Shown here in pieces: positions 35,442-49,572 of a stretch of 64,000 bases of DNA. The stretch spans positions 448,001-512,000 of the forward strand of contig OZ244999.1 in the NCBI GenBank assembly GCA_965223265.1. Reading direction: 5' to 3'. Both the position numbers and the translations under genes were made by a program. How positions within the stretch are numbered: position 1 is the first letter of the stretch; every line of letters starts with the position of its first letter. The notes below the pieces were generated by a model that was not told where the DNA came from, did not search any database, and saw only the letters and a program-made list of their open reading frames with translations. The stretch comes from Planctomycetota bacterium (GTDB lineage Bacteria > Planctomycetota > UBA8108 > SXIK01).

Positions 35442-35788
35442 TATACTGGCCGGCTAGCTCGAGTTTGGCCATTTCGCGTCGAGCCTGCCAGCGCCAGGAG
35501 CGTCGAGGCCAAGGAGCGACTCGGGCGCGATCCTGCTCGGGTCGTGGCGGAGGACGGGCGCGGGCATCGGCGCTCCTGGCGTTCCCCGAAGGGCCGGACA
35601 GGAGTTTTTGAACTTTCACAAGGGTTCTCAGGGTACAAAAAAGTTGAAAGGGCCTTTGAATCCCCGCGAAACTCGTCCGGCCAGGCCGGCGCGAAATCGC
35701 CAAACTCGAGGCTAGACCTTCGGCCGCGGCCGTACTCGCGGTGCCTTCATCATTGACCGTCCCCGTGGGTCCACGCCATGGAGAAACT

Positions 35789-38700
35789 GTGAGCCAGCGC
35801 TCAACGCGACGAGAAGAATGGGACATCGACGCAGCCCTGCGGATCCTGCAGGCTTCCATCGATCCTTACATTTGGGATCAAGGGCAGGAGCTGTACCGGC
35901 GCGGCGCCGTCAAGGATTTCGCCATGTCGCAGGACGGCAACATTCGCGTGATCGTCCTTGATCCTCGCGATGCGCGGAACTTTTTCGTTAGCGTTCGACG
36001 CGAGCACGATGGCCGGATCGTCTCACATTGCGCGTGTCCGTATCGCTTGAACGGCCGATGTAGACATCAAGTTGTCGCACTCGAGTATTTGCGCGCGATA
36101 GCCGGTGGGGAGGCTCAACCAACCAGTGCCGCCGCCGCTGATGCTGCCGTCGAGTCGCCGCGCGTCAGTGGAGGCGACGTCAGTGATGCGGCGGGGAAAG
36201 CAGGGCCGGTACTCTACCGCCTATTTGACCCTCCATGCGACGTGGTGACAGCGGAGGACGGTTCGCTGCTGCGCCTTGTACTGCTATCGCTCGGCTCGGC
36301 CACGACGGCGCACCGTGTGGCGCTTCAGCTTTTCACCACGACTGGCTGGGGAGAAGTACGGACGCCGGAACTCGATCGCTGGATCGGCCGCGGAGATGTT
36401 GGGCCGCACCCGCGTGATTTGGCGCTTCGATCGACGCTTGCCGGGGATGGAGGCATTCGAAATGACGTCGATTCCGAGACGTTTGGGTATCTTCTGACTG
36501 TCGTCGCCGAGAGTTCCGCGCTGGTTGACCGATCGGGAAATGTGCTTGCTGTCTCACGCGATCCTTGGCGTCTGCGCACCGATGTGGAACGTTCAGGTGA
36601 GACTTCAATCCGCGTGCGTTTCTCGTGCGTCTTCCCAGGGCGCGAGTCGCGTCGATTCGAAGAGGTGGCGCTCGTCCCTTCGACCAGCGCGTGGATCCAA
36701 CTCGACAGTGGCGCGTTCCATCCCCTGATCGCAGCCGTACCGGGGCCGCTACTCGCTGAGGTGCAGGTCGAAGAGCTGAGTGAGATCGCGCCGCCCGAAT
36801 TGGACCAGTTCTTGATCAGCGGCGTGCATCAGCTCGAACGTTTGACTCCCGGCATGTTCTTCATAGAGCCCGGTCTGATTCGAGAGGTGGAAGGTGTAGA
36901 TAGCGCGCGCGTCCGGTTGAGCGCCATTGGCGACGAGTCTAGTGGAGGCTTTGCCGGTCAGCTTGAATTCCTCTACGGCGACGAATGGGTCGAGGCGCCG
37001 AGCGATCCAACGCCTTGGACGATCGATCAAGGCGGCAAGATCCACCGCTACCCTGCGGCGGGGCAGTCCCTCGCAAAGGCGCGACGTGAGCTCGAGAATG
37101 TCGGCTTCCGCCACGCAGATGGCGAATGGCGGCTCGAAGGGGAAGACGCGCTCGAGCGCGTGTTATCACAAGCGCCAGATTCGTTCGTCTCATTCGATCT
37201 GCCGCAGGAAGCAGCCGCGCGTGATTTTGTGAGTCGCGCACCACGCGTCCGTGTTGCGGTAGAGACGACGGACGAGAACGCAGATGGGACCCCGCAGTTG
37301 CGGCTTTCTCTTGAGCTGTTCGATGGCGATCGGCGACTCAGTTTTTCCACCGCTGAATTTGCTGAGCTCACTCCGGCCGGACGTCGAGGCTTCTTTCGCC
37401 TAGAAGACGAATCGATTGTGGATCCACGCCATCCAGGAGTGCGCGATCTCATCGAGCTGCTCGCCGCCGCCCACCGTTCAGGATCTGAACCGAGCCTCGA
37501 GGATGGGCGGCTCTGCCTTTCTGCGCCCGCGAGTGCAGTCGCGCTCATAGCCGACGCCAGCGATGAAGTGGATTTGGAACTTTCGCCGCGGGTCGCCCGT
37601 CTGTGTGAGAGGTTGAGCGGGCATCGGCTGGACGGGTCGGAAGAGATCGACGCATCTGGTTTTCAGGACAGCGTCGTGAAAACGCTGCGTGAGTATCAAC
37701 TCGCAGCCGTTGCATGGTTCGGGGCGCTCGCCGAGTGGGGGCTCGCCGGAGTGCTTGCTGACGAGATGGGACTCGGAAAGACTTTGATGACTCTTGCGCA
37801 CTTCTTCGGGCGCACGACAGCCGGCGCGCGCTCAGGAGAAGCGGCAGAGCCGGGCCATGCGGCGCTACCGGTGTTGGTCGTCTGCCCGACGAGCCTGGTC
37901 TTCAATTGGCTTGACGAGACGCAGCGATTTTTTCCAGAGGTGCGGACGACGTCGCTGCAGGGACTGCCGCGAGAGAAGCGCGAGGCGCTCCTCGGTTCTG
38001 ATACTGATATGATCGTGACCTCCTACGCGCTGATGAGACGCGACCGGGAGGCGTTGGAAGCGCTGCAGTTTCGTGCTGTAGTCCTCGACGAGGCCCAGCA
38101 TGTCAAGAACGCGGCGAGCCAGACGGCGAAGGCCGCGTTTGCGCTCCGGGCGCAGCAGCGCTGGGCGCTCACCGGCACGCCGATGGAAAACCATCTTGGC
38201 GAGATCTGGTCGATCTTCCGTTTTCTGTTGCCGGGATTCCTCGGTACGCAAGACGAGTTCGTCAAGGAATACCGAGAGCCCGCGGAGCGAGGCGACGACA
38301 CGGCTGTGACGCAGTTGCGACGGCGAGTGCGTCCCTTCATCTTGCGCCGCACCAAGACGGAGGTTTTGACGGATCTCCCTGAGCTGATCGAGCAGACGCG
38401 ACGGGTGCCGCTGTCGCCGCTGCAGCGTCAACTCTACGACGCGGAGTTGGCGGCTGCGCGCGAAGTCGTAGAGGGAGCTGAGGGGCCACAGGCGCGCATC
38501 AAGGTTCTCGCTGCGCTGACTCGCCTGCGGCAGATCTGCTGCGATCCGGGATTGATTCTTGACGACGAAGACCTCGCAACACTGCGAACGACTGAGGAGA
38601 CCGTCGTCAGCAGCAAGATGGAGCTACTCCTCGAGTTGCTTGAGGAGTGTATCGATGAACAGCATCGCGTCCTTCTTTTCAGTCAATTCACCAGCATGCT

Positions 38701-39115
38701 TGATCTCATCGAGTTGCGCCTCGACGAACGTAGCGTCGATCGCTGTCGACTCGATGGCGCAACACGCGATCGCGAGGCTCAGGTGCGGCGTTTTCAGGGC
38801 GATGGCGCAGTGCCAATCTTTCTCATCAGTCTCAAGGCTGGCGGCTACGGTCTCAATCTGACCGCGGCCGACATCGTGATTCTTTTCGATCCATGGTGGA
38901 ACCCGGCGACGGAAGCCCAGGCCGTGGCGAGAGCTCATCGCATGGGGCAGATGATGCCCGTGCATGTTCATAAGCTGGTGGCCGCAGACACCGTCGAGGA
39001 AAGAATCCAGGAGCTTCAGGAGACGAAACGAGACCTGGCCTCCCGTCTTCTCGAAACGGGTGAAGATCCGTTCGCGCAGCTGAATCTCGATACCTTGCGC
39101 GAGCTTTTCGCGTAA
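35789..39115 (+). CDS. SWIM-domain SNF2/DEAD-like helicase
   Basis: CACP...CRH SWIM motif; LADEMGLGKT, DEAQ, TGTPMEN, SLKAGGYGLNL, DPWWNP. Confidence 0.93.
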   Translation: MSQRSTRREEWDIDAALRILQASIDPYIWDQGQELYRRGAVKDFAMSQDGNIRVIVLDPRDARNFFVSVRREHDGRIVSHCACPYRLNGRCRHQVVALEYLRAIAGGEAQPTSAAAADAAVESPRVSGGDVSDAAGKAGPVLYRLFDPPCDVVTAEDGSLLRLVLLSLGSATTAHRVALQLFTTTGWGEVRTPELDRWIGRGDVGPHPRDLALRSTLAGDGGIRNDVDSETFGYLLTVVAESSALVDRSGNVLAVSRDPWRLRTDVERSGETSIRVRFSCVFPGRESRRFEEVALVPSTSAWIQLDSGAFHPLIAAVPGPLLAEVQVEELSEIAPPELDQFLISGVHQLERLTPGMFFIEPGLIREVEGVDSARVRLSAIGDESSGGFAGQLEFLYGDEWVEAPSDPTPWTIDQGGKIHRYPAAGQSLAKARRELENVGFRHADGEWRLEGEDALERVLSQAPDSFVSFDLPQEAAARDFVSRAPRVRVAVETTDENADGTPQLRLSLELFDGDRRLSFSTAEFAELTPAGRRGFFRLEDESIVDPRHPGVRDLIELLAAAHRSGSEPSLEDGRLCLSAPASAVALIADASDEVDLELSPRVARLCERLSGHRLDGSEEIDASGFQDSVVKTLREYQLAAVAWFGALAEWGLAGVLADEMGLGKTLMTLAHFFGRTTAGARSGEAAEPGHAALPVLVVCPTSLVFNWLDETQRFFPEVRTTSLQGLPREKREALLGSDTDMIVTSYALMRRDREALEALQFRAVVLDEAQHVKNAASQTAKAAFALRAQQRWALTGTPMENHLGEIWSIFRFLLPGFLGTQDEFVKEYREPAERGDDTAVTQLRRRVRPFILRRTKTEVLTDLPELIEQTRRVPLSPLQRQLYDAELAAAREVVEGAEGPQARIKVLAALTRLRQICCDPGLILDDEDLATLRTTEETVVSSKMELLLELLEECIDEQHRVLLFSQFTSMLDLIELRLDERSVDRCRLDGATRDREAQVRRFQGDGAVPIFLISLKAGGYGLNLTAADIVILFDPWWNPATEAQAVARAHRMGQMMPVHVHKLVAADTVEERIQELQETKRDLASRLLETGEDPFAQLNLDTLRELFA

Positions 39116-39129
39116 CCCTGCGGTCGAGC

Positions 39130-39256
39130 GCGGAGGCAGAGGCAGAGGCAGAGGCGGAGGCAGAGGCGGAAGCAGAGGCGGAGGCAGAGGCAGAGGCGGA
39201 AGCAGAGGCGGAGGCAGAGGCAGAGGCAGAGGCAGAGGCAGGCAGAGGCAGAGGCA
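39130..39256 (+). repeat. (GAGGCA/GAGGCG)n hexamer microsatellite, left flank of IS array
   Basis: About 21 tandem units visible, with GAAGCA variants and one 2-nt slip near 39241. Confidence 0.97.
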
Positions 39257-39820
39257 CCTATGGTCCGACTGTTGTCAACGGGGGAGCTTTCTTTTCTTGA
39301 TTGTCTTCAATCCGACGTGGGGCAGTTGGGTTGCCTGGGGGTCCGGGGGGCGGCGGGTAGAGCGCCCCCGGGCTCTGTGCAGCCCGGAAGGTACCGCACG
39401 CGGGAGAGATCATTCTGGGTTGCCTGGGGGTCCGGGGGGCGGCGGGTAGAGCGCCCCCGGGCTCTGTGCAGCCCGGAAGGTACCGCACGCGGGAGAGATC
39501 ATTTTCGTAGTAGTGCTGTGTTGTCTTTGGGCTGGCGGTAAAGAAGCCAAGTGTTCGGTTCGCTCTGAGCGCCGGGGCGGCAAAGCGCCTCGCGGCCAAC
39601 TCCTATGCGTGTCCGCTCTCTGGCGGATCACCTGATACTGCGTTCGCATCGCGGCAGGCGAACCGACAAGGACGGTTCCTTCTGAGAAGCACGGCGGCTT
39701 GGAAAGCCAGCCCAGCCTCTGCTCGAACGCGTCCTACAGTCGGCCAAGAATCCGAGTCAGCCCTGCAGGTCCCTCCGTTTGAGTTGGGTTGGTGTGTTGA
39801 GCCTGTTGCTGGTCATCGAA
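39257..39820 (-). ncRNA. 3' non-coding end of the element, predicted to encode a bridge/seek RNA (equivalents at 41036-41510, 42744-43307, 44559-45033, 46267-46830)
   Basis: Long, stem-rich non-coding region downstream of the recombinase as in IS1111-type elements; short matches to target and junction; RNA ends unknown. Confidence 0.65.
39327..39503 (+). repeat. 89-bp tandem duplication within the element (copies 1, 3 and 5 only)
   Basis: TGGGTTGCCTGGGGGTCC...GAGAGATCATT occurs twice; accounts for 1743 vs 1654 bp. Confidence 0.95.
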
Positions 39821-40948
39821 TTAGGAACTGAGCCGTGCCAAGGGAGGTGGTACGTCAGTGCTGAGGAATCGCCAGAGCGAAATGAGCAGCTTTCTGGCTA
39901 AGGCGACGATTCCCGCCTTGCGCGAGCGCTTGGTGCCTGGCCCATAGCGCTGGCAGAACCATTGAGATAGCTGGCTCTGTGGCTGAAAGCGCAGCCAGTT
40001 CCAGGCAGCCTGAACCATGAGTGTGCGTACACGCCCGTTGCCAGCTTTGCTGATTCCTTGCTCGCGTTTGATGTTGTCACTGCGCCAGGGAACGCTCACC
40101 ATTCCTGCCAGGGCTCCGATTTCACGGCGATTGTTGAACTTACGCCAGAAGAACTCGTAGTAGAGCGTTGCGGCAGTGTACATGCCGATGCCGCGCAGGC
40201 TGTTGAGCTTGCCGACTTTCTTGCAGGCCTCCGGCGAGTTGGTGAGCGTTTCGAGAGTCTCGGCCTCAATCTCAGCGATTTGCTCTTCGACAAGCTGCAG
40301 CCGAGCGTGCTCGCGTAGCATGCCTGCCTTGGCATGCGGGGGGATCGCAGATCCATCGGGGCCGCGTAACGTGTCGATGATTTCAGGCAGCTTCTTGAGG
40401 CGGGCGCGGATGCCGAACTTGATCAACATGTCCTTGAGGCGATTGATGTGCCGAGTGCGATCCTTGACAAGGCGCTGACGCTCTCTTGGCAGGCGGCGCT
40501 CGTCCTCGATCTGCACGCTCGGCACATTGACAACGCGCAGTGGGCTGCGCGACGAGCCGTGGTGACGGATCAAAAGATCGAGCATCTTCTCTCCGTCGAG
40601 GCGATCGGTCTTTTGACGCTTGGCGCGCTGATCGACCTCGCAGCTAGCCGGGTCAATGACGGCGTTGTGGATCCCACTGTCTACGAGCCAGCGGTGCAGC
40701 CAGAATCCATCGCGGCCAGCTTCGTAGCAGCTCACCACCTCAGCTTGCGGCGAAAGGCGCAAGCGCGCCTTGGCTTTCGAGAGCTCTTCCTGAAACTCCG
40801 CAAGGTTTCCCGCCTCGACCGTCCTGCAGCGCGGCCGGCTCCCCGCAACACCGCTGACGAGCTTCCACGTTGTGTTGCCAACGTCAATTGCCACGTGAAG
40901 AACTTCGCTCATGTCGGTAAGCTGTCCCTGGGTCGTTCTTGTTGCCAT
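39821..40948 (-). CDS. IS110 family DEDD transposase/recombinase (375 aa), copy 1
   Basis: AID...CYEAG...KTDRLD DEDD tetrad; C-terminal RGIG, PWRSD serine, GISKAGN, VALARKL; AGGAG RBS. Confidence 0.96.
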   Translation of the reverse strand: MATRTTQGQLTDMSEVLHVAIDVGNTTWKLVSGVAGSRPRCRTVEAGNLAEFQEELSKAKARLRLSPQAEVVSCYEAGRDGFWLHRWLVDSGIHNAVIDPASCEVDQRAKRQKTDRLDGEKMLDLLIRHHGSSRSPLRVVNVPSVQIEDERRLPRERQRLVKDRTRHINRLKDMLIKFGIRARLKKLPEIIDTLRGPDGSAIPPHAKAGMLREHARLQLVEEQIAEIEAETLETLTNSPEACKKVGKLNSLRGIGMYTAATLYYEFFWRKFNNRREIGALAGMVSVPWRSDNIKREQGISKAGNGRVRTLMVQAAWNWLRFQPQSQLSQWFCQRYGPGTKRSRKAGIVALARKLLISLWRFLSTDVPPPLARLSS

Positions 40949-40999
40949 CTCTTCACTCCTAAAAAAGACTATGGTACACGAGGACGGCCCATAGTTTCT

Positions 41000-41035
41000 G
41001 AGGCGGAGGCAGAGGCAGAGGCAGAGGCAGAGGCA
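41000..41035 (+). repeat. Inter-element spacer: 6 GAGGCR units
   Basis: Counted directly. Confidence 0.95.
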
Positions 41036-42689
41036 CCTATGGTCCGACTGTTGTCAACGGGGGAGCTTTCTTTTCTTGATTGTCTTCAATCCGACGTGGG
41101 GCAGTTGGGTTGCCTGGGGGTCCGGGGGGCGGCGGGTAGAGCGCCCCCGGGCTCTGTGCAGCCCGGAAGGTACCGCACGCGGGAGAGATCATTTTCGTAG
41201 TAGTGCTGTGTTGTCTTTGGGCTGGCGGTAAAGAAGCCAAGTGTTCGGTTCGCTCTGAGCGCCGGGGCGGCAAAGCGCCTCGCGGCCAACTCCTATGCGT
41301 GTCCGCTCTCTGGCGGATCACCTGATACTGCGTTCGCATCGCGGCAGGCGAACCGACAAGGACGGTTCCTTCTGAGAAGCACGGCGGCTTGGAAAGCCAG
41401 CCCAGCCTCTGCTCGAACGCGTCCTACAGTCGGCCAAGAATCCGAGTCAGCCCTGCAGGTCCCTCCGTTTGAGTTGGGTTGGTGTGTTGAGCCTGTTGCT
41501 GGTCATCGAATTAGGAACTGAGCCGTGCCAACGGAGGTGGTACGTCAGTGCTGAGGAATCGCCAGAGCGAAATGAGCAGCTTTCTGGCTAAGGCGACGAT
41601 TCCCGCCTTGCGCGAGCGCTTGGTGCCTGGCCCATAGCGCTGGCAGAACCATTGAGATAGCTGGCTCTGTGGCTGAAAGCGCAGCCAGTTCCAGGCAGCC
41701 TGAACCATGAGTGTGCGTACACGCCCGTTGCCAGCTTTGCTGATTCCTTGCTCGCGTTTGATGTTGTCACTGCGCCAGGGAACGCTCACCATTCCTGCCA
41801 GGGCTCCGATTTCACGGCGATTGTTGAACTTACGCCAGAAGAACTCGTAGTAGAGCGTTGCGGCAGTGTACATGCCGATGCCGCGCAGGCTGTTGAGCTT
41901 GCCGACTTTCTTGCAGGCCTCCGGCGAGTTGGTGAGCGTTTCGAGAGTCTCGGCCTCAATCTCAGCGATTTGCTCTTCGACAAGCTGCAGCCGAGCGTGC
42001 TCGCGTAGCATGCCTGCCTTGGCATGCGGGGGGATCGCAGATCCATCGGGGCCGCGTAACGTGTCGATGATTTCAGGCAGCTTCTTGAGGCGGGCGCGGA
42101 TGCCGAACTTGATCAACATGTCCTTGAGGCGATTGATGTGCCGAGTGCGATCCTTGACAAGGCGCTGACGCTCTCTTGGCAGGCGGCGCTCGTCCTCGAT
42201 CTGCACGCTCGGCACGTTGACAACGCGCAGTGGGCTGCGCGACGAGCCGTGGTGACGGATCAAAAGATCGAGCATCTTCTCTCCGTCGAGGCGATCGGTC
42301 TTTTGACGCTTGGCGCGCTGATCGACCTCGCAGCTAGCCGGGTCAATGACGGCGTTGTGGATCCCACTGTCTACGAGCCAACGGTGCAGCCAGAATCCAT
42401 CGCGGCCAGCTTCGTAGCAGCTCACCACCTCAGCTTGCGGCGAAAGGCGCAAGCGCGCCTTGGCTTTCGAGAGCTCTTCCTGAAACTCCGCAAGGTTTCC
42501 CGCCTCGACCGTCCTGCAGCGCGGCCGGCTCCCCGCAACACCGCTGACGAGCTTCCACGTTGTGTTGCCAACGTCAATTGCCACGTGAAGAACTTCGCTC
42601 ATGTCGGTAAGCTGTCCCTGGGTCGTTCTTGTTGCCATCTCTTCACTCCTAAAAAAGACTATGGTACACGAGGACGGCCCATAGTTTCT
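41036..42689 (-). mobile_element. IS110/IS1111-type element, copy 2, short allele, 1654 bp
   Basis: Near-identical to copy 1; lacks the 89-bp duplication; 3 synonymous SNPs seen. Confidence 0.95.
41511..42638 (-). CDS. IS110 family transposase, copy 2
   Basis: Protein identical to copy 1. Confidence 0.96.
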   Translation of the reverse strand: MATRTTQGQLTDMSEVLHVAIDVGNTTWKLVSGVAGSRPRCRTVEAGNLAEFQEELSKAKARLRLSPQAEVVSCYEAGRDGFWLHRWLVDSGIHNAVIDPASCEVDQRAKRQKTDRLDGEKMLDLLIRHHGSSRSPLRVVNVPSVQIEDERRLPRERQRLVKDRTRHINRLKDMLIKFGIRARLKKLPEIIDTLRGPDGSAIPPHAKAGMLREHARLQLVEEQIAEIEAETLETLTNSPEACKKVGKLNSLRGIGMYTAATLYYEFFWRKFNNRREIGALAGMVSVPWRSDNIKREQGISKAGNGRVRTLMVQAAWNWLRFQPQSQLSQWFCQRYGPGTKRSRKAGIVALARKLLISLWRFLSTDVPPPLARLSS

Positions 42690-42743
42690 GAGGCGGAGGC
42701 AGAGGCAGAGGCAGAGGCAGAGGCGGAGGCAGAGGCAGAGGCA
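42690..42743 (+). repeat. Inter-element spacer: 9 GAGGCR units
   Basis: Counted directly. Confidence 0.95.
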
Positions 42744-44486
42744 CCTATGGTCCGACTGTTGTCAACGGGGGAGCTTTCTTTTCTTGATTGTCTTCAATCC
42801 GACGTGGGGCAGTTGGGTTGCCTGGGGGTCCGGGGGGCGGCGGGTAGAGCGCCCCCGGGCTCTGTGCAGCCCGGAAGGTACCGCACGCGGGAGAGATCAT
42901 TCTGGGTTGCCTGGGGGTCCGGGGGGCGGCGGGTAGAGCGCCCCCGGGCTCTGTGCAGCCCGGAAGGTACCGCACGCGGGAGAGATCATTTTCGTAGTAG
43001 TGCTGTGTTGTCTTTGGGCTGGCGGTAAAGAAGCCAAGTGTTCGGTTCGCTCTGAGCGCCGGGGCGGCAAAGCGCCTCGCGGCCAACTCCTATGCGTGTC
43101 CGCTCTCTGGCGGATCACCTGATACTGCGTTCGCATCGCGGCAGGCGAACCGACAAGGACGGTTCCTTCTGAGAAGCACGGCGGCTTGGAAAGCCAGCCC
43201 AGCCTCTGCTCGAACGCGTCCTACAGTCGGCCAAGAATCCGAGTCAGCCCTGCAGGTCCCTCCGTTTGAGTTGGGTTGGTGTGTTGAGCCTGTTGCTGGT
43301 CATCGAATTAGGAACTGAGCCGTGCCAAGGGAGGTGGTACGTCAGTGCTGAGGAATCGCCAGAGCGAAATGAGCAGCTTTCTGGCTAAGGCGACGATTCC
43401 CGCCTTGCGCGAGCGCTTGGTGCCTGGCCCATAGCGCTGGCAGAACCATTGAGATAGCTGGCTCTGTGGCTGAAAGCGCAGCCAGTTCCAGGCAGCCTGA
43501 ACCATGAGTGTGCGTACACGCCCGTTGCCAGCTTTGCTGATTCCTTGCTCGCGTTTGATGTTGTCACTGCGCCAGGGAACGCTCACCATTCCTGCCAGGG
43601 CTCCGATTTCACGGCGATTGTTGAACTTACGCCAGAAGAACTCGTAGTAGAGCGTTGCGGCAGTGTACATGCCGATGCCGCGCAGGCTGTTGAGCTTGCC
43701 GACTTTCTTGCAGGCCTCCGGCGAGTTGGTGAGCGTTTCGAGAGTCTCGGCCTCAATCTCAGCGATTTGCTCTTCGACAAGCTGCAGCCGAGCGTGCTCG
43801 CGTAGCATGCCTGCCTTGGCATGCGGGGGGATCGCAGATCCATCGGGGCCGCGTAACGTGTCGATGATTTCAGGCAGCTTCTTGAGGCGGGCGCGGATGC
43901 CGAACTTGATCAACATGTCCTTGAGGCGATTGATGTGCCGAGTGCGATCCTTGACAAGGCGCTGACGCTCTCTTGGCAGGCGGCGCTCGTCCTCGATCTG
44001 CACGCTCGGCACATTGACAACGCGCAGTGGGCTGCGCGACGAGCCGTGGTGACGGATCAAAAGATCGAGCATCTTCTCTCCGTCGAGGCGATCGGTCTTT
44101 TGACGCTTGGCGCGCTGATCGACCTCGCAGCTAGCCGGGTCAATGACGGCGTTGTGGATCCCACTGTCTACGAGCCAGCGGTGCAGCCAGAATCCATCGC
44201 GGCCAGCTTCGTAGCAGCTCACCACCTCAGCTTGCGGCGAAAGGCGCAAGCGCGCCTTGGCTTTCGAGAGCTCTTCCTGAAACTCCGCAAGGTTTCCCGC
44301 CTCGACCGTCCTGCAGCGCGGCCGGCTCCCCGCAACACCGCTGACGAGCTTCCACGTTGTGTTGCCAACGTCAATTGCCACGTGAAGAACTTCGCTCATG
44401 TCGGTAAGCTGTCCCTGGGTCGTTCTTGTTGCCATCTCTTCACTCCTAAAAAAGACTATGGTACACGAGGACGGCCCATAGTTTCT
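42744..44486 (-). mobile_element. IS110/IS1111-type element, copy 3, long allele, 1743 bp
   Basis: Same allele as copy 1. Confidence 0.95.
43308..44435 (-). CDS. IS110 family transposase, copy 3
   Basis: Protein identical to copy 1. Confidence 0.96.
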   Translation of the reverse strand: MATRTTQGQLTDMSEVLHVAIDVGNTTWKLVSGVAGSRPRCRTVEAGNLAEFQEELSKAKARLRLSPQAEVVSCYEAGRDGFWLHRWLVDSGIHNAVIDPASCEVDQRAKRQKTDRLDGEKMLDLLIRHHGSSRSPLRVVNVPSVQIEDERRLPRERQRLVKDRTRHINRLKDMLIKFGIRARLKKLPEIIDTLRGPDGSAIPPHAKAGMLREHARLQLVEEQIAEIEAETLETLTNSPEACKKVGKLNSLRGIGMYTAATLYYEFFWRKFNNRREIGALAGMVSVPWRSDNIKREQGISKAGNGRVRTLMVQAAWNWLRFQPQSQLSQWFCQRYGPGTKRSRKAGIVALARKLLISLWRFLSTDVPPPLARLSS

Positions 44487-44558
44487 GAGGCAGAGGCAGA
44501 GGCAGAGGCAGAGGCGGAGGCAGAGGCAGAGGCAGAGGCAGAGGCGGAGGCAGAGGCA
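44487..44558 (+). repeat. Inter-element spacer: 12 GAGGCR units
   Basis: Counted directly. Confidence 0.95.
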
Positions 44559-46212
44559 CCTATGGTCCGACTGTTGTCAACGGGGGAGCTTTCTTTTCTT
44601 GATTGTCTTCAATCCGACGTGGGGCAGTTGGGTTGCCTGGGGGTCCGGGGGGCGGCGGGTAGAGCGCCCCCGGGCTCTGTGCAGCCCGGAAGGTACCGCA
44701 CGCGGGAGAGATCATTTTCGTAGTAGTGCTGTGTTGTCTTTGGGCTGGCGGTAAAGAAGCCAAGTGTTCGGTTCGCTCTGAGCGCCGGGGCGGCAAAGCG
44801 CCTCGCGGCCAACTCCTATGCGTGTCCGCTCTCTGGCGGATCACCTGATACTGCGTTCGCATCGCGGCAGGCGAACCGACAAGGACGGTTCCTTCTGAGA
44901 AGCACGGCGGCTTGGAAAGCCAGCCCAGCCTCTGCTCGAACGCGTCCTACAGTCGGCCAAGAATCCGAGTCAGCCCTGCAGGTCCCTCCGTTTGAGTTGG
45001 GTTGGTGTGTTGAGCCTGTTGCTGGTCATCGAATTAGGAACTGAGCCGTGCCAAGGGAGGTGGTACGTCAGTGCTGAGGAATCGCCAGAGCGAAATGAGC
45101 AGCTTTCTGGCTAAGGCGACGATTCCCGCCTTGCGCGAGCGCTTGGTGCCTGGCCCATAGCGCTGGCAGAACCATTGAGATAGCTGGCTCTGTGGCTGAA
45201 AGCGCAGCCAGTTCCAGGCAGCCTGAACCATGAGTGTGCGTACACGCCCGTTGCCAGCTTTGCTGATTCCTTGCTCGCGTTTGATGTTGTCACTGCGCCA
45301 GGGAACGCTCACCATTCCTGCCAGGGCTCCGATTTCACGGCGATTGTTGAACTTACGCCAGAAGAACTCGTAGTAGAGCGTTGCGGCAGTGTACATGCCG
45401 ATGCCGCGCAGGCTGTTGAGCTTGCCGACTTTCTTGCAGGCCTCCGGCGAGTTGGTGAGCGTTTCGAGAGTCTCGGCCTCAATCTCAGCGATTTGCTCTT
45501 CGACAAGCTGCAGCCGAGCGTGCTCGCGTAGCATGCCTGCCTTGGCATGCGGGGGGATCGCAGATCCATCGGGGCCGCGTAACGTGTCGATGATTTCAGG
45601 CAGCTTCTTGAGGCGGGCGCGGATGCCGAACTTGATCAACATGTCCTTGAGGCGATTGATGTGCCGAGTGCGATCCTTGACAAGGCGCTGACGCTCTCTT
45701 GGCAGGCGGCGCTCGTCCTCGATCTGCACGCTCGGCACGTTGACAACGCGCAGTGGGCTGCGCGACGAGCCGTGGTGACGGATCAAAAGATCGAGCATCT
45801 TCTCTCCGTCGAGGCGATCGGTCTTTTGACGCTTGGCGCGCTGATCGACCTCGCAGCTAGCCGGGTCAATGACGGCGTTGTGGATCCCACTGTCTACGAG
45901 CCAACGGTGCAGCCAGAATCCATCGCGGCCAGCTTCGTAGCAGCTCACCACCTCAGCTTGCGGCGAAAGGCGCAAGCGCGCCTTGGCTTTCGAGAGCTCT
46001 TCCTGAAACTCCGCAAGGTTTCCCGCCTCGACCGTCCTGCAGCGCGGCCGGCTCCCCGCAACACCGCTGACGAGCTTCCACGTTGTGTTGCCAACGTCAA
46101 TTGCCACGTGAAGAACTTCGCTCATGTCGGTAAGCTGTCCCTGGGTCGTTCTTGTTGCCATCTCTTCACTCCTAAAAAAGACTATGGTACACGAGGACGG
46201 CCCATAGTTTCT
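44559..46212 (-). mobile_element. IS110/IS1111-type element, copy 4, short allele, 1654 bp
   Basis: Short allele sharing two SNPs with copy 2. Confidence 0.95.
45034..46161 (-). CDS. IS110 family transposase, copy 4
   Basis: Protein identical to copy 1. Confidence 0.96.
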   Translation of the reverse strand: MATRTTQGQLTDMSEVLHVAIDVGNTTWKLVSGVAGSRPRCRTVEAGNLAEFQEELSKAKARLRLSPQAEVVSCYEAGRDGFWLHRWLVDSGIHNAVIDPASCEVDQRAKRQKTDRLDGEKMLDLLIRHHGSSRSPLRVVNVPSVQIEDERRLPRERQRLVKDRTRHINRLKDMLIKFGIRARLKKLPEIIDTLRGPDGSAIPPHAKAGMLREHARLQLVEEQIAEIEAETLETLTNSPEACKKVGKLNSLRGIGMYTAATLYYEFFWRKFNNRREIGALAGMVSVPWRSDNIKREQGISKAGNGRVRTLMVQAAWNWLRFQPQSQLSQWFCQRYGPGTKRSRKAGIVALARKLLISLWRFLSTDVPPPLARLSS

Positions 46213-46266
46213 GAGGCGGAGGCAGAGGCAGAGGCAGAGGCAGAGGCGGAGGCAGAGGCAGAGGCA
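46213..46266 (+). repeat. Inter-element spacer: 9 GAGGCR units (same sequence as 42690-42743)
   Basis: Counted directly. Confidence 0.95.
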
Positions 46267-48009
46267 CCTATGGTCCGACTGTTGTCAACGGGGGAGCTTT
46301 CTTTTCTTGATTGTCTTCAATCCGACGTGGGGCAGTTGGGTTGCCTGGGGGTCCGGGGGGCGGCGGGTAGAGCGCCCCCGGGCTCTGTGCAGCCCGGAAG
46401 GTACCGCACGCGGGAGAGATCATTCTGGGTTGCCTGGGGGTCCGGGGGGCGGCGGGTAGAGCGCCCCCGGGCTCTGTGCAGCCCGGAAGGTACCGCACGC
46501 GGGAGAGATCATTTTCGTAGTAGTGCTGTGTTGTCTTTGGGCTGGCGGTAAAGAAGCCAAGTGTTCGGTTCGCTCTGAGCGCCGGGGCGGCAAAGCGCCT
46601 CGCGGCCAACTCCTATGCGTGTCCGCTCTCTGGCGGATCACCTGATACTGCGTTCGCATCGCGGCAGGCGAACCGACAAGGACGGTTCCTTCTGAGAAGC
46701 ACGGCGGCTTGGAAAGCCAGCCCAGCCTCTGCTCGAACGCGTCCTACAGTCGGCCAAGAATCCGAGTCAGCCCTGCAGGTCCCTCCGTTTGAGTTGGGTT
46801 GGTGTGTTGAGCCTGTTGCTGGTCATCGAATTAGGAACTGAGCCGTGCCAAGGGAGGTGGTACGTCAGTGCTGAGGAATCGCCAGAGCGAAATGAGCAGC
46901 TTTCTGGCTAAGGCGACGATTCCCGCCTTGCGCGAGCGCTTGGTGCCTGGCCCATAGCGCTGGCAGAACCATTGAGATAGCTGGCTCTGTGGCTGAAAGC
47001 GCAGCCAGTTCCAGGCAGCCTGAACCATGAGTGTGCGTACACGCCCGTTGCCAGCTTTGCTGATTCCTTGCTCGCGTTTGATGTTGTCACTGCGCCAGGG
47101 AACGCTCACCATTCCTGCCAGGGCTCCGATTTCACGGCGATTGTTGAACTTACGCCAGAAGAACTCGTAGTAGAGCGTTGCGGCAGTGTACATGCCGATG
47201 CCGCGCAGGCTGTTGAGCTTGCCGACTTTCTTGCAGGCCTCCGGCGAGTTGGTGAGCGTTTCGAGAGTCTCGGCCTCAATCTCAGCGATTTGCTCTTCGA
47301 CAAGCTGCAGCCGAGCGTGCTCGCGTAGCATGCCTGCCTTGGCATGCGGGGGGATCGCAGATCCATCGGGGCCGCGTAACGTGTCGATGATTTCAGGCAG
47401 CTTCTTGAGGCGGGCGCGGATGCCGAACTTGATCAACATGTCCTTGAGGCGATTGATGTGCCGAGTGCGATCCTTGACAAGGCGCTGACGCTCTCTTGGC
47501 AGGCGGCGCTCGTCCTCGATCTGCACGCTCGGCACATTGACAACGCGCAGTGGGCTGCGCGACGAGCCGTGGTGACGGATCAAAAGATCGAGCATCTTCT
47601 CTCCGTCGAGGCGATCGGTCTTTTGACGCTTGGCGCGCTGATCGACCTCGCAGCTAGCCGGGTCAATGACGGCGTTGTGGATCCCACTGTCTACGAGCCA
47701 GCGGTGCAGCCAGAATCCATCGCGGCCAGCTTCGTAGCAGCTCACCACCTCAGCTTGCGGCGAAAGGCGCAAGCGCGCCTTGGCTTTCGAGAGCTCTTCC
47801 TGAAACTCCGCAAGGTTTCCCGCCTCGACCGTCCTGCAGCGCGGCCGGCTCCCCGCAACACCGCTGACGAGCTTCCACGTTGTGTTGCCAACGTCAATTG
47901 CCACGTGAAGAACTTCGCTCATGTCGGTAAGCTGTCCCTGGGTCGTTCTTGTTGCCATCTCTTCACTCCTAAAAAAGACTATGGTACACGAGGACGGCCC
48001 ATAGTTTCT
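46267..48009 (-). mobile_element. IS110/IS1111-type element, copy 5, long allele, 1743 bp
   Basis: Same allele as copies 1 and 3. Confidence 0.95.
46831..47958 (-). CDS. IS110 family transposase, copy 5
   Basis: Same 375-aa protein; true start at 47958 by identity with the other copies. Confidence 0.96.
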   Translation of the reverse strand: MATRTTQGQLTDMSEVLHVAIDVGNTTWKLVSGVAGSRPRCRTVEAGNLAEFQEELSKAKARLRLSPQAEVVSCYEAGRDGFWLHRWLVDSGIHNAVIDPASCEVDQRAKRQKTDRLDGEKMLDLLIRHHGSSRSPLRVVNVPSVQIEDERRLPRERQRLVKDRTRHINRLKDMLIKFGIRARLKKLPEIIDTLRGPDGSAIPPHAKAGMLREHARLQLVEEQIAEIEAETLETLTNSPEACKKVGKLNSLRGIGMYTAATLYYEFFWRKFNNRREIGALAGMVSVPWRSDNIKREQGISKAGNGRVRTLMVQAAWNWLRFQPQSQLSQWFCQRYGPGTKRSRKAGIVALARKLLISLWRFLSTDVPPPLARLSS

Positions 48010-48066
48010 GAGGCAGAGGCGGAGGCAGAGGCAGAGGCAGAGGCAGAAACAGCGGCAGAGGCAGAA
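48010..48066 (+). repeat. (GAGGCR)n microsatellite, right flank, degenerating
   Basis: 6 perfect units followed by GAAACA GCGGCA GAGGCA. Confidence 0.95.
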
Positions 48067-48264
48067 AAGAGGCGGGTTGTTAGGGCGTGCGCGCGGCGGC
48101 GGCATTGTCGATGGTAACCGAAGCACAGCCGGCCTCAAGGGTGCCCTCGCTGCGCTCGGCGCTTCGCGCGCTTGACCCCGTCTGTGCTTCGGTTGGCGGC
48201 AGTGAAACGCCGCCGCGTCGGGCGTGCGGCGAGAGTTCACGGGGCCGTTGACCGGAGTCTTCTC

Positions 48265-48588
48265 ATGAGCTTTCTCGCTTTGGATCACTCTGTTGGCATC
48301 GTTCGTCAGCTGCGTCCGCTTGTAGCGTCTGTGCGTCGTCACGACTCGAGGCTCGCTGCGCAGCTGCGCGACGCAGGCTCTTCGGTGGCGCTCAACCTCG
48401 GCGAGGGCAATCGGCGTCAGGGTCGTGACCGCGGACACCTTTGGCGCATTGCTTCAGGCAGCGCTGAAGAGGTTCGCACGGCGCTGCGTGTTGCCGAAGC
48501 GTGGGGCTACGTCGATGCAGCGGAGACAACTGCGGTGCTTGCGGACATCGATCGGCTGCAGGCAATGCTCTGGAAACTGACGCGCTGA
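48265..48588 (+). CDS. Four helix bundle protein (23S rRNA-IVP / Avd-like fold family)
   Basis: QLRDAGSSVALNLGEG..R and IASGSAEEV...WGY motifs; GGAG RBS; 107 aa. Confidence 0.88.
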   Translation: MSFLALDHSVGIVRQLRPLVASVRRHDSRLAAQLRDAGSSVALNLGEGNRRQGRDRGHLWRIASGSAEEVRTALRVAEAWGYVDAAETTAVLADIDRLQAMLWKLTR

Positions 48589-48642
48589 CGCAGAAACCTT
48601 GGCCCGCCGTGCAGTACTTCGCGCGGCGGGTTTGACGACGAG

Positions 48643-48886
48643 GGAGAGGCGGAGACAGAACCAGATACAGAGTCAGAAACAGAGGCGGAGACAGAATACA
48701 GAACCAGATACAGAGTCAGAAGCAGAAACAGAAACGGATACAGAAACGGATACGGAGGCAGAAGCGATTACCGGCACGCCCACGCCCACGCCCACGCCCA
48801 CGCCCACGCCCACGCCCACGCCCACGCACTCACAAACGCCCACGCACTCACAAACGCCCACGCAAACGCCCTCGCCCTCGCCCACC
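48643..48886 (+). repeat. Compound hexamer microsatellite: degenerate GA(G/A/T)(A/G)C(A/G) units followed by (ACGCCC)n and CACTCACAAACGCCC units
   Basis: Directly visible in the intergenic region. Confidence 0.92.
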
Positions 48887-48954
48887 GAGCTAGGCTGGGC
48901 TCGCGACGCGGCGGCCGAGTCACGACTCGATGTGCGGAACAAACGACTCGAGCT

Positions 48955-49572
48955 TCACCCGGCCGACCCCTCCGACGCACCGTCGGCGATGTCGGGCTCC
49001 TTGACTCCGATGGCTGAAAACGTGAAGAACTCGAGGTGCGTCGGGGCGCGCCAGGCGTCCGGCTGTAGGCCCATCTTTTGCCGGCAGCATTCCCCTAAGA
49101 GCGTCGGTACGTCCCACTGTTGCTCGACCGCTACTTCGGGCAGAAAGCAGCCGCGCTTGTTGGCCCTGCGGTCGACGATGTAGATCCCCTCGCTCCCGCG
49201 TCGAAGGTGCAGGGGGTCATCGATTGCTGTCAGGCTTGAAAGAATCCGCACCGAGAGGACGAGATTGTCGAGCTCCTCCGCCGTCACGGGGTTGCGCTGA
49301 AAGCGGGAGTCGCGCGTCGCTGAACCAGCCATCTCGAAGATCGTTGCGCCCAGCGGTTCGGAACTCTCGAACGTTCCGACGCATCCGCGGAGTTCCCCGC
49401 GTCGATTCCTCAAGGTCACGAAACATCCGCGCCGCTGCGCTAGCACCCCGCCGGACGCGAGAGGGCGCGCTTGAGGCACCGCCGCGACGAAAGCAGCGCG
49501 AAGACCTGCCCGCGCGCACTCGAGGACCTCGCGCTTCGCTGCGGGTGAAAGCTCGGTTCTTTCTTGGGTCAT
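48955..49572 (-). CDS. AmmeMemoRadiSam system protein A (AMMECR1 family)
   Basis: GCFVTL...LRGCVG, DSRF..V...EL, FLPEVA.EQ.W. Confidence 0.9.
   Translation of the reverse strand: MTQERTELSPAAKREVLECARAGLRAAFVAAVPQARPLASGGVLAQRRGCFVTLRNRRGELRGCVGTFESSEPLGATIFEMAGSATRDSRFQRNPVTAEELDNLVLSVRILSSLTAIDDPLHLRRGSEGIYIVDRRANKRGCFLPEVAVEQQWDVPTLLGECCRQKMGLQPDAWRAPTHLEFFTFSAIGVKEPDIADGASEGSAG

Follow-up and report, generated by a model that had tools for sequence, protein, structure and literature searches.

IS-1 is an insertion sequence (IS) of the IS1111 type that occurs five times in tandem inside one (GAGGCA)n microsatellite of a planctomycete genome, and its non-coding region holds a predicted structured RNA with segments that match both sides of its target. 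From these sequence relationships we put the probability that IS-1 is RNA-guided to the hexamer repeat at about 0.8. The array lies in a stretch of 64,000 nt, here called the window, which is C1:448001-512000 of a genome available as a single contig (C1; 9,179,496 bp, 60.8% G+C) and the sole member of its genus among the genomes searched. Coordinates without a prefix are window positions, and those with the prefix C1: are whole-genome positions. The element in the array is called IS-1 and a second IS1111-type element in the same genome is called IS-2.

Insertion of IS-1 in hexamer tracts

The five copies (A1 to A5) share one orientation and one register relative to the repeat, with junctions that all read GAGGCA/CCTATGG ... 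CATAGTTTCT/GAGGCR (slashes mark the ends of elements here and below). A preliminary description of the window, made from its letters alone, had reported five IS110/IS1111-type copies in this arrangement, and both the junctions and the family matches agree with it. The copies are separated by pure GAGGCA/GAGGCG spacers of 6, 9, 12 and 9 units (36, 54, 72 and 54 bp), as had been described; Tandem Repeats Finder gives the same tracts. With flanks and spacers summed, the hexamer tract without its elements measures 376 bp, in keeping with the earlier estimate of about 370-400 bp. Its left part contains a single 4-nt unit, two repeats ahead of A1. Two forms of the element are present, a long one (A1, A3 and A5), defined by an exact 89-bp tandem duplication, and a short one (A2 and A4).

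The transposase (375 aa as called) matches PF01548 (E 4.1e-10), PF02371 (E 3.6e-14) and the NCBIfam model NF033542, 'IS110 family RNA-guided transposase', at 194.4 bits over residues 19-365 (cut-off 140). It also matches weakly the IS621 recombinase structure 8wt6 (E 0.0027), with the KTDxxD and Ser positions aligned. The protein contains the motifs VAIDVG, CYEAG and KTDRLD, the last aligning with KTDTVD of IS621; judging by eye, these may hold the catalytic D, E, D and D. In element orientation the left end is AGAAACT + ATGGGCCGTC and the right end is GTCGGACCAT + AGG. The subterminal inverted repeat, ATGGGCCGTC and ATGGTCCGAC, agrees at 8/10 positions; inverted repeats of the IS1111 family are usually longer, at 11-13 bp, and better matched. 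It leaves extensions of 7 nt at the left (AGAAACT) and 3 nt at the right (AGG), and a non-coding region of 475 nt (564 nt in the long form) lies 3′ of the transposase gene. Such 7- and 3-nt extensions and a long non-coding region 3′ of the transposase are given as IS1111 hallmarks by Siddiquee et al. (2024, PMC11187229). Insertion is site- and orientation-specific and without target duplication, again as in IS1111 elements, in all eight full copies known in the genome. TTGACA ends 16 nt short of the right terminus and GAAACT occupies left-end positions 2-7; abutted ends would form a candidate promoter-like pair with 17-nt spacing. A circular intermediate with a promoter at the abutted ends is described for the family (Siddiquee et al. 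2024, PMC11187229). By these features of its sequence IS-1 is an IS1111-type insertion sequence encoding an IS110-family DEDD recombinase.

BLAST of IS-1 against the genome found three further full copies, all of the short form; the long form is confined to the array. GAGRCR tracts, counted when they have at least 3 units, amount to 112 stretches at 75 loci in this genome, with a total of 4,830 bp (0.05% of the genome). All three outside loci are such tracts, and register and orientation are the same as in the array. Their flanks, in array orientation, are ...GCAGAGGCAGAGGCA/IS/GAGGCGGAGACAGAAACGG..., ...GGAAGGCAGAGACA/IS/GAGACGGAGACGGAAGG... and ...GACAGAGGCAGAGGCA/IS/GAGGCAGAGACAGAGACA..., and one of these loci reads GAGACA/IS/GAGACG. 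The eight full copies, at four independent loci, therefore all share a register and face the same way with respect to the repeat strand. Because the tracts make up 4,830 bp of 9,179,496 bp yet hold all four loci, a chance location of IS-1 in them is excluded. About 70 tract loci are unoccupied. The eight copies are at most four substitutions apart, besides the 89-bp duplication, and every open reading frame (ORF) is intact; from their sequences they appear recently active.

Two right-end fragments of IS-1, both decayed, were also found, at C1:5827856-5827927 (87% identity) and C1:6414623-6414687 (94%). One of the two abuts a TGTCTC-CGCCTC hexamer tract. The other has degenerate hexamer-like sequence before it, with a related repeat tract about 110 bp away and (CACGCC)-like and 24-nt repeat tracts nearby. 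They are probably remnants of older insertions.

The relation between element and repeat could be the reverse, with the hexamers made by IS-1, as 6-bp target duplications or as footprints of insertion and excision, and the tract their consequence. In a hexamer tract the absence of a duplication and a 6-bp duplication look the same, and the hexamers on the two sides are identical in 3/8 copies. They are unlike in the other 5/8, although the copies are nearly identical, and this difference, together with the GAGACA/IS/GAGACG site, shows that the repeat is neither borne by the element nor a fresh target duplication. No duplication is evident by inspection in the 14-nt flanks of related elements, and the family is described as making none (PMC11187229). 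The empty tract loci also speak against an origin from the element, as do tracts in other genomes. Within the order, three further genomes contain five-unit GAGRCR tracts (G007, G016 and G017, the last with 92 matches), and in these drafts, 80-89% complete, no match to the IS-1 transposase was found; neither G007 nor G017 gave any IS110-family match, and G016 gave just two IS110-family fragments, far below the family cut-off. We consider an origin of the tract from the element extremely improbable. On two points that would have told against the preliminary description the outcome is in its favour: no full copy stands in unrelated flanks, and the hexamers do not travel with the element.

A candidate guide RNA

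Relatives of IS-1 in scans of genome contigs and metagenome contigs are 41-49% identical to it in protein, and nothing closer (above about 49%) was found in either set or in 40 relative genomes. Those in genome contigs are mostly from Burkholderiales, with some from Gemmatimonadota, Pirellulales and Acidobacteriota assemblies. They share the termini AGAT[AG]CT-ATG... and ...TTGAC-N-CATAGA (in full, AGATACT + ATGAAGGGC ... GCCCTCAT + AGA), and their non-coding regions can be aligned with that of IS-1. RNAalifold gives a common structure of 31 pairs in 6 helices. Over 26 sequences, 93.6% of the cells in these pairs are paired, and the share falls to 35-41% once the 3′ partners are shifted by 1-3 columns; two-sided changes occur in 19 pairs, and none of 500 shuffles reached the observed values. 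A covariance model built from 25 relatives only, leaving IS-1 out, finds all five window copies at full length (52.8 bits, E 3.9e-11). A scan of 38500-49500 with Rfam, at E up to 1, gave no match.

The predicted RNA has an internal loop between helices 2 and 3 whose 5′ side, about 12 nt, varies among relatives. Read in reverse complement, this side matches the right flank of the same element from flank position 2 or 3 onwards. The model matched in 81 sources, yielding 84 distinct elements. Ends were located by the conserved terminal motifs; 48 elements had both, and 36 that lacked an end motif or ran into a contig edge were set aside. At least 7 contiguous nt of an element's right flank are complementary to its own loop in 36/48 elements, against 33/2,174 cross-pairings (relatives alone, 35/47 against 1.5%). 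In IS-1 the loop GCAGAGGC is the complement of GCCTCTGC, positions 2-9 of the right flank TGCCTCTGCCTC, a match of 8 nt at offset +2.

In relatives, AGAU-GGG stands at the end of the loop's 3′ side and follows a few nt identical to the left flank. A left-flank match of at least 3 nt is found in 12/47 elements and in 43/2,119 cross-pairings; IS-1 has 3. Its segment CUC-AGAA-GG equals the left flank ...CTC followed by bases 1-4 of the IS-1 left end. Two co-variations tie the RNA to the ends of the element. Where the left end is AGAA the RNA has AGAAGG (IS-1), and where it is AGAT the RNA has AGAUGG (relatives). Likewise a right end in ...AGG goes with CAUAGGAG in the RNA of IS-1, and one in ...AGA with GAUAGAAG in relatives. 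This last segment is conserved and single-stranded, and equals the junction of abutted right and left ends.

The candidate top-strand complement, GCAGAGGC, lies 5′ of CUC-AGAA, which has top-strand identity at the left junction. This is the order reported for IS1111 seekRNAs, in which the top-strand complement comes first and the bottom-strand match second (Siddiquee et al. 2024, PMC11187229). The same study shows by experiment that the RNA of the family is essential and can be reprogrammed, and describes 'natural reprogramming' of the loop for ISEc11 and ISXne4. The loop differences that we see among relatives with different flanks correspond to this. A tandem-hexamer location was seen in none of the 47 relatives (14-nt flanks, by inspection).

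Many Burkholderiaceae relatives (L067, L068, L070, L057, L069, L075, L095 and others) have the right flank AGTCTTACTGTGTC and a matching loop, GACAGTAAGA, and other relatives have the common right flank AGCNGCCGTTC. The AGTCTTACTGTGTC and AGCNGCCGTTC flanks look like host repeat families used as targets.

Taken together, the two candidate guide segments of IS-1 read CTC/TGCCTCTGC, about 12 nt, which in element orientation makes two (TGCCTC)n units. By reading of the flanks, this guide fits seven of the eight IS-1 sites perfectly and the eighth, with flank TGTCTC, through a G-T wobble. The genome has 60 occurrences of the perfect 12-mer, at 21 loci, against about 2 expected by base composition, and 26 of the 60 are in the array tract. 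Most other tracts are mixed and rich in GAGACA. The array tract is by far the largest cluster of perfect sites, and for this reason the copies are gathered there. The proposal of the preliminary description that the element is programmed against a microsatellite gains backing from this positional analysis of the predicted guides.

Recognition of the tract might instead reside in the recombinase, for instance if the purine-rich repeat has an unusual DNA structure, in which case the guide matches would be coincidental. The tract is strongly asymmetric in purines and pyrimidines, and the left guide is only 3 nt, as such an account would allow. Yet the hexamer-matching loop is homologous in position to the one that in relatives matches the right flank, at the frequencies given above; register and orientation are exact in 8/8 copies; and in the published family experiments the RNA is essential and reprogrammable (PMC11187229). 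Recognition by protein alone is therefore highly improbable.

For RNA guidance, then, we propose the following. IS-1 would make a structured RNA of the seekRNA/bridge-RNA kind, encoded downstream of the recombinase gene, with an internal loop closed by two conserved helices that reads both sides of the target. The 5′ side of the loop, GCAGAGGC, would pair with the top strand of the right flank, T/GCCTCTGC, and its 3′ side, CUC+AGAA, is identical to the final 3 nt of the left flank and the 4 nt with which the left end begins. Because the guides would read two hexamer units, each unit boundary in a pure tract would be a target, in a single register and orientation; and as insertion adds no bases, the tract on both sides would still be a target. 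Production of this RNA and its guidance of recombination are things that we infer from sequence, and so are the circular intermediate, the promoter at its junction and the succession of steps in the array.

Several observations weigh against RNA guidance or sit poorly with it. The left-flank guide is short, at 3 nt (4 with a U-G wobble), and the mean in relatives is 2.0 nt, so that the left half of the target is poorly defined. The two IS-1 guide segments are mutually complementary because the target is a tandem repeat, and in the minimum-free-energy fold they pair with each other (AGAGGC with GCUUCU) and close the loop; if the fold is right, this pairing could hinder target binding. The right flank of relatives starts with AG (or AA), like the left end, and so resembles a shared core, while that of IS-1 starts with TG and has only the G in common with the left end. 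In the transposase, AGMVSVPWRSD has Asp after the presumed catalytic Ser and lacks the S(T)G of the family pattern G..P....S(t)G. The IS1111 family reads SG or TG at this motif (Siddiquee et al. 2024, PMC11187229). The Ser of IS-1 aligns with that of YESGSS in IS621, and many relatives have SG (...P.P...SG in about 26/56, from a regular-expression scan that also returned off-target strings). The SD of IS-1 is probably tolerated, since it is common to all eight copies, which appear recently active. The empty allele that the preliminary description had proposed to look for, between the SNF2-family helicase gene (35741-39115) and the PF05635 four-helix-bundle gene (48172-48588) on either side of the array tract, was not found: SNF2 orthologues are present in the two nearest genomes (G001, 57% protein identity, and G003, 54%), without synteny downstream, where unrelated genes and no tract follow. 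Finally, the alternation of forms in the array and a repeated 3,451-bp module misfit five independent hops.

A separate donor guide was also considered. A 14-nt stretch (CCGACTGT-AGGACG) is complementary to both subterminal regions, and was rejected as a donor guide because the fold puts it in the RNA's own stems.

Growth and assembly of the array

The copies follow one another strictly as long-short-long-short-long. The three long copies are mutually identical, A2 is identical to the outside copies at C1:743506 and C1:904588, and A4 is a short copy in which a single base, position 497 when the copy is read on the + strand, is that of the long form. Beyond the 89-bp duplication, which is in the non-coding part and falls outside the guide segments, the two forms differ by three substitutions and by a base at the duplication joint. 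The segments A2-spacer 2-A3 and A4-spacer 4-A5 have 1 mismatch in 3,451 bp, which is the long-form base in A4, and their identity extends 12 and 11 bp beyond. As this short-54 bp-long module occurs twice with a single mismatch, at least one growth step of the array was probably a duplication or movement of a two-copy module. Spacer 3 has 12 units (A/G pattern AAAAGAAAAGAA); it does not repeat spacer 1, nor would simply joining the present right tract to spacer 1 produce it. Under plain unequal exchange spacer 1 would be repeated, and spacer 3 differs from it and is longer, so extra slippage would be needed.

Two routes fit better, unequal exchange in the tracts with slippage, or composite transposition. 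We suggest that the purest GAGGCA tract of the genome collected several copies, that at least two forms entered it or arose there, and that at least one further step copied the two-IS module, by unequal crossing-over between tracts or copies or by transposition of a composite. Such a composite would run from the left end of one copy to the right end of the following one, both with proper target flanks. Circles with alternative ends and 'modular transposition' are described for ISPpu9, of the IS110 family (PMC12288879). The preliminary description saw the tract as a reusable landing pad. The tract does retain its large share of the perfect 12-nt sites, and that part of the idea stands, but the view that repeated reuse built the array needs qualifying, given the 3,451-bp module.

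Homologous recombination could have played the larger part. Targeting would then be real, with one or two insertions amplified by unequal crossing-over and the long form arising in place. The strict alternation, the identity of spacers 2 and 4 and the repeated module are what such amplification would leave; the long form is in this array alone, and the long-form base in A4 is as gene conversion from a neighbour would give. Set against this are the extra slippage that spacer 3 needs under plain unequal exchange, and the forms themselves, which are three substitutions and a duplication apart and near-identical within each form, a pattern that two source lineages fit at least as well. We regard amplification from one or two insertions as a serious account of the array, though on balance an unlikely one.

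An assembly artefact, in which a long-read assembler over-expanded the repeat, was checked with Logan k-mer contigs of four runs (two samples of one study, possibly the source of the assembly) placed on 38700-41100. In runs X2-X4 the k-mer depth of the IS body and of the unique flank was 30.3/3.4, 83/10.7 and 28.8/3.7, about 8-fold, and a 61-nt contig over the joint of the 89-bp duplication had depths of 12.4, 34.2 and 13.6, about 3.2-3.7-fold relative to the flank. These ratios, although the check is weak and k-mer depth is not itself a copy number, fit eight copies of which three are long, in three runs from two samples; they agree with the earlier view that there are multiple copies and not one. 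The k-mer contigs break at the tracts and so do not show the order of copies; nor do these interrupted contigs contain joints, a circle junction or an empty site, which says nothing against their existence. The spacers vary in length and in A/G pattern, unlike a collapsed or stuttered repeat, and we hold an artefact to be very unlikely.

Coordinates are collected in Table 1. The longer ORF listed for A5 is a mere upstream extension without a stop codon.

Table 1. Positions of IS-1 and IS-2 features in the window and elsewhere in the genome
Feature	Position	Strand	Remark
Left part of (GAGGCR)n tract	39133-39256	+	Tandem Repeats Finder: period 6, 21 copies
IS-1 copy A1, long, 1743 bp	39257-40999	-	transposase ORF 39821-40948 (-); identical to A3, A5
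Spacer 1, 6 hexamers (36 bp)	41000-41035	+	
IS-1 copy A2, short, 1654 bp	41036-42689	-	transposase ORF 41511-42638 (-)
Spacer 2, 9 hexamers (54 bp)	42690-42743	+	identical to spacer 4
IS-1 copy A3, long, 1743 bp	42744-44486	-	transposase ORF 43308-44435 (-)
Spacer 3, 12 hexamers (72 bp)	44487-44558	+	
IS-1 copy A4, short, 1654 bp	44559-46212	-	transposase ORF 45034-46161 (-)
Spacer 4, 9 hexamers (54 bp)	46213-46266	+	
IS-1 copy A5, long, 1743 bp	46267-48009	-	transposase ORF 46831-47958 (-)
Right part of tract	48010-48066	+	6 pure units, then degenerate
Exact 89-bp tandem duplication (defines long form)	39327-39503, 42814-42990, 46337-46513		between RNA scaffold and right end
Predicted seekRNA/bridge-RNA scaffold	39602-39739, 41292-41429, 43089-43226, 44815-44952, 46612-46749	-	covariance model
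A1 right-target guide GCAGAGGC	39715-39722	-	predicted
A1 left-flank/left-end segment CTC+AGAA	39680-39686	-	predicted
A1 circle-junction segment CATAGG+AG	39600-39607	-	predicted
IS-1 full copies outside array	C1:743506-745159, C1:904588-906241, C1:5868346-5869999	-, +, -	BLAST
IS-2 copies in GAGRCR tracts	C1:402104-404165, C1:5606523-5608188, C1:5870053-5871723		

The array tract begins 17 nt past the stop codon of the SNF2 helicase gene. On its other side, the PF05635 gene, which is like that of the 23S rRNA intervening-sequence protein, is followed by an (ACAGAA)-like tract and then a (CACGCC)n tract (region 48650-48885). The PF05635 protein has 42 tblastn matches genome-wide, 10 of them within 600 bp of a GAGRCR tract, and a PF05635 gene lies at most 1 kb from 8/69 tract loci, where roughly 0.6 would be expected by our estimate. 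The strand of the tracts agrees only roughly with the halves of the genome. The purine-rich strand is mostly + at 7.48-9.17 and 0-2.09 Mb and mostly - at 1.74-7.69 Mb, and the cumulative GC skew is lowest at 7.95 Mb and highest at 3.52 Mb. IS-1 and IS-2 are both orientation-specific, and so the direction of their copies depends on that of the tracts.

IS-2, known systems and significance

IS-2 has a transposase 27% identical to that of IS-1 and is present with four intact genes. It too is found in GAGRCR tracts, once as a tandem pair (C1:5604924-5608188) whose first member ends at C1:5606460, leaving 62 bp of tract between the neighbours, and once 53 bp from an IS-1 copy (copy D). Solo right ends occur at C1:1962323 and C1:4355574, and in one IS-2 copy the right end is present in triplicate, with repeats about 198 bp apart. 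Written in the direction of IS-2, the junctions are GAG[AT]C[AG]G/AGATGGG-ATGAGAAGGCC ... GGCCTTCTCAT-GGA/AGGC[AG]GAGAC. The right-end pattern is kept in 6/6 intact or solo terminal junctions; the internal right-end repeats at C1:403769 and 403967 run on into IS-2 sequence. It follows from the junction pattern that IS-2 reads the opposite repeat strand, in another register than IS-1. Its non-coding region has candidate guides, CUCUGC and GACAG-AG, and a junction candidate, AUGGA-AG. Among 20 other genomes of the order, IS-2 was not found at E up to 1e-30 in 19, and one had a partial match.

A third IS110-family gene, C1:2060365-2061405 (-), is single-copy and 44% identical to that of IS-2. Its left end, which has the same inverted-repeat core, lies beside two repeats of a 9-mer, GCAAACGAA, and no right end was found.

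We propose tentatively, at slightly less than even odds, that two unrelated IS1111-type lineages (27% identical) were each reprogrammed to GAGRCR microsatellites, on opposite strands and in different registers. The tracts would then be a genome-wide, self-renewing safe harbour in which copies stack in tandem and multi-copy modules move, and nature would here provide a first case of a bridge/seek-RNA recombinase directed at a simple repeat, whose guides are of necessity mutually complementary.

In anatomy and mechanism IS-1 is an IS1111-type element with a reprogrammed guide loop, which is known biology; what appears undescribed is the kind of target and its consequences. ISEc11, ISKpn4/ISPst6 and ISPa11, as described in PMC11187229, resemble it in the DEDD transposase, the subterminal repeats with 7- and 3-nt extensions and the downstream non-coding region, and also in two RNA segments that match the top and then the bottom strand, insertion in one orientation without added bases, and reprogramming of the loop. 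Known IS1111 targets in that source are a unique 12-mer, an attC end or a REP, in contrast to the tandem hexanucleotide repeat of IS-1, which offers a site every 6 bp and makes the guide segments mutually complementary. The IS-1 transposase, at 375 aa as called, is also longer than the 330-350 aa reported there for IS1111, and has SD in place of SG/TG.

Like the bridge RNA of IS621 and IS110 (Durrant et al. 2024, PMC11208160), the predicted IS-1 RNA has an internal loop reading both target strands. That of IS621 is in the left end, with separate target and donor loops and a CT core (PMC11208160), whereas the IS-1 RNA would be encoded downstream of the gene. Durrant et al. predicted that 93% of IS1111 elements have a bridge RNA, located in their right end (PMC11208160). 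No separate donor loop was identified in IS-1; there is instead the single-stranded segment matching the circle junction.

ISPpu9 (PMC12288879) and ISPa11, which target REPs, are like IS-1 in using an abundant intergenic repeat as a safe landing site. ISPpu9 recombines at an AG common to target and IS (PMC12288879), and the relatives of IS-1 have AG at both places too. A REP holds one site per repeat and is interrupted by insertion, whereas a microsatellite holds many overlapping sites, stays usable and allows stacking. Animal non-LTR retrotransposons specific for (TAA)n or (TC)n similarly use a simple repeat as a harmless, recurring target; these are eukaryotic, and work by target-primed reverse transcription with an endonuclease, without guide RNA or DEDD recombinase. 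In literature on bacterial IS and IS1111 targeting of microsatellites we found no described case of a bacterial IS directed to a microsatellite, as the preliminary description had supposed, although the more than 300 ISfinder target logos in the supplement of PMC11187229 may include one.

A microsatellite target is neutral, recurs every 6 bp and is not consumed by insertion, and it can hold many copies per tract; the length of the tract, itself mutable, sets the number of landing sites. IS-1 thus offers a natural test case for the minimum of guide-target pairs, for overlapping identical sites, for self-pairing guides and for the composite movement of tandem copies. For the engineering of bridge/seek-RNA recombinases it is an instance of natural multi-copy insertion into one programmable pad. 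The interest is chiefly for work on IS110/IS1111 elements and bridge recombinases. At these loci of a bacterial genome two sources of instability, simple repeats and insertion sequences, are joined.

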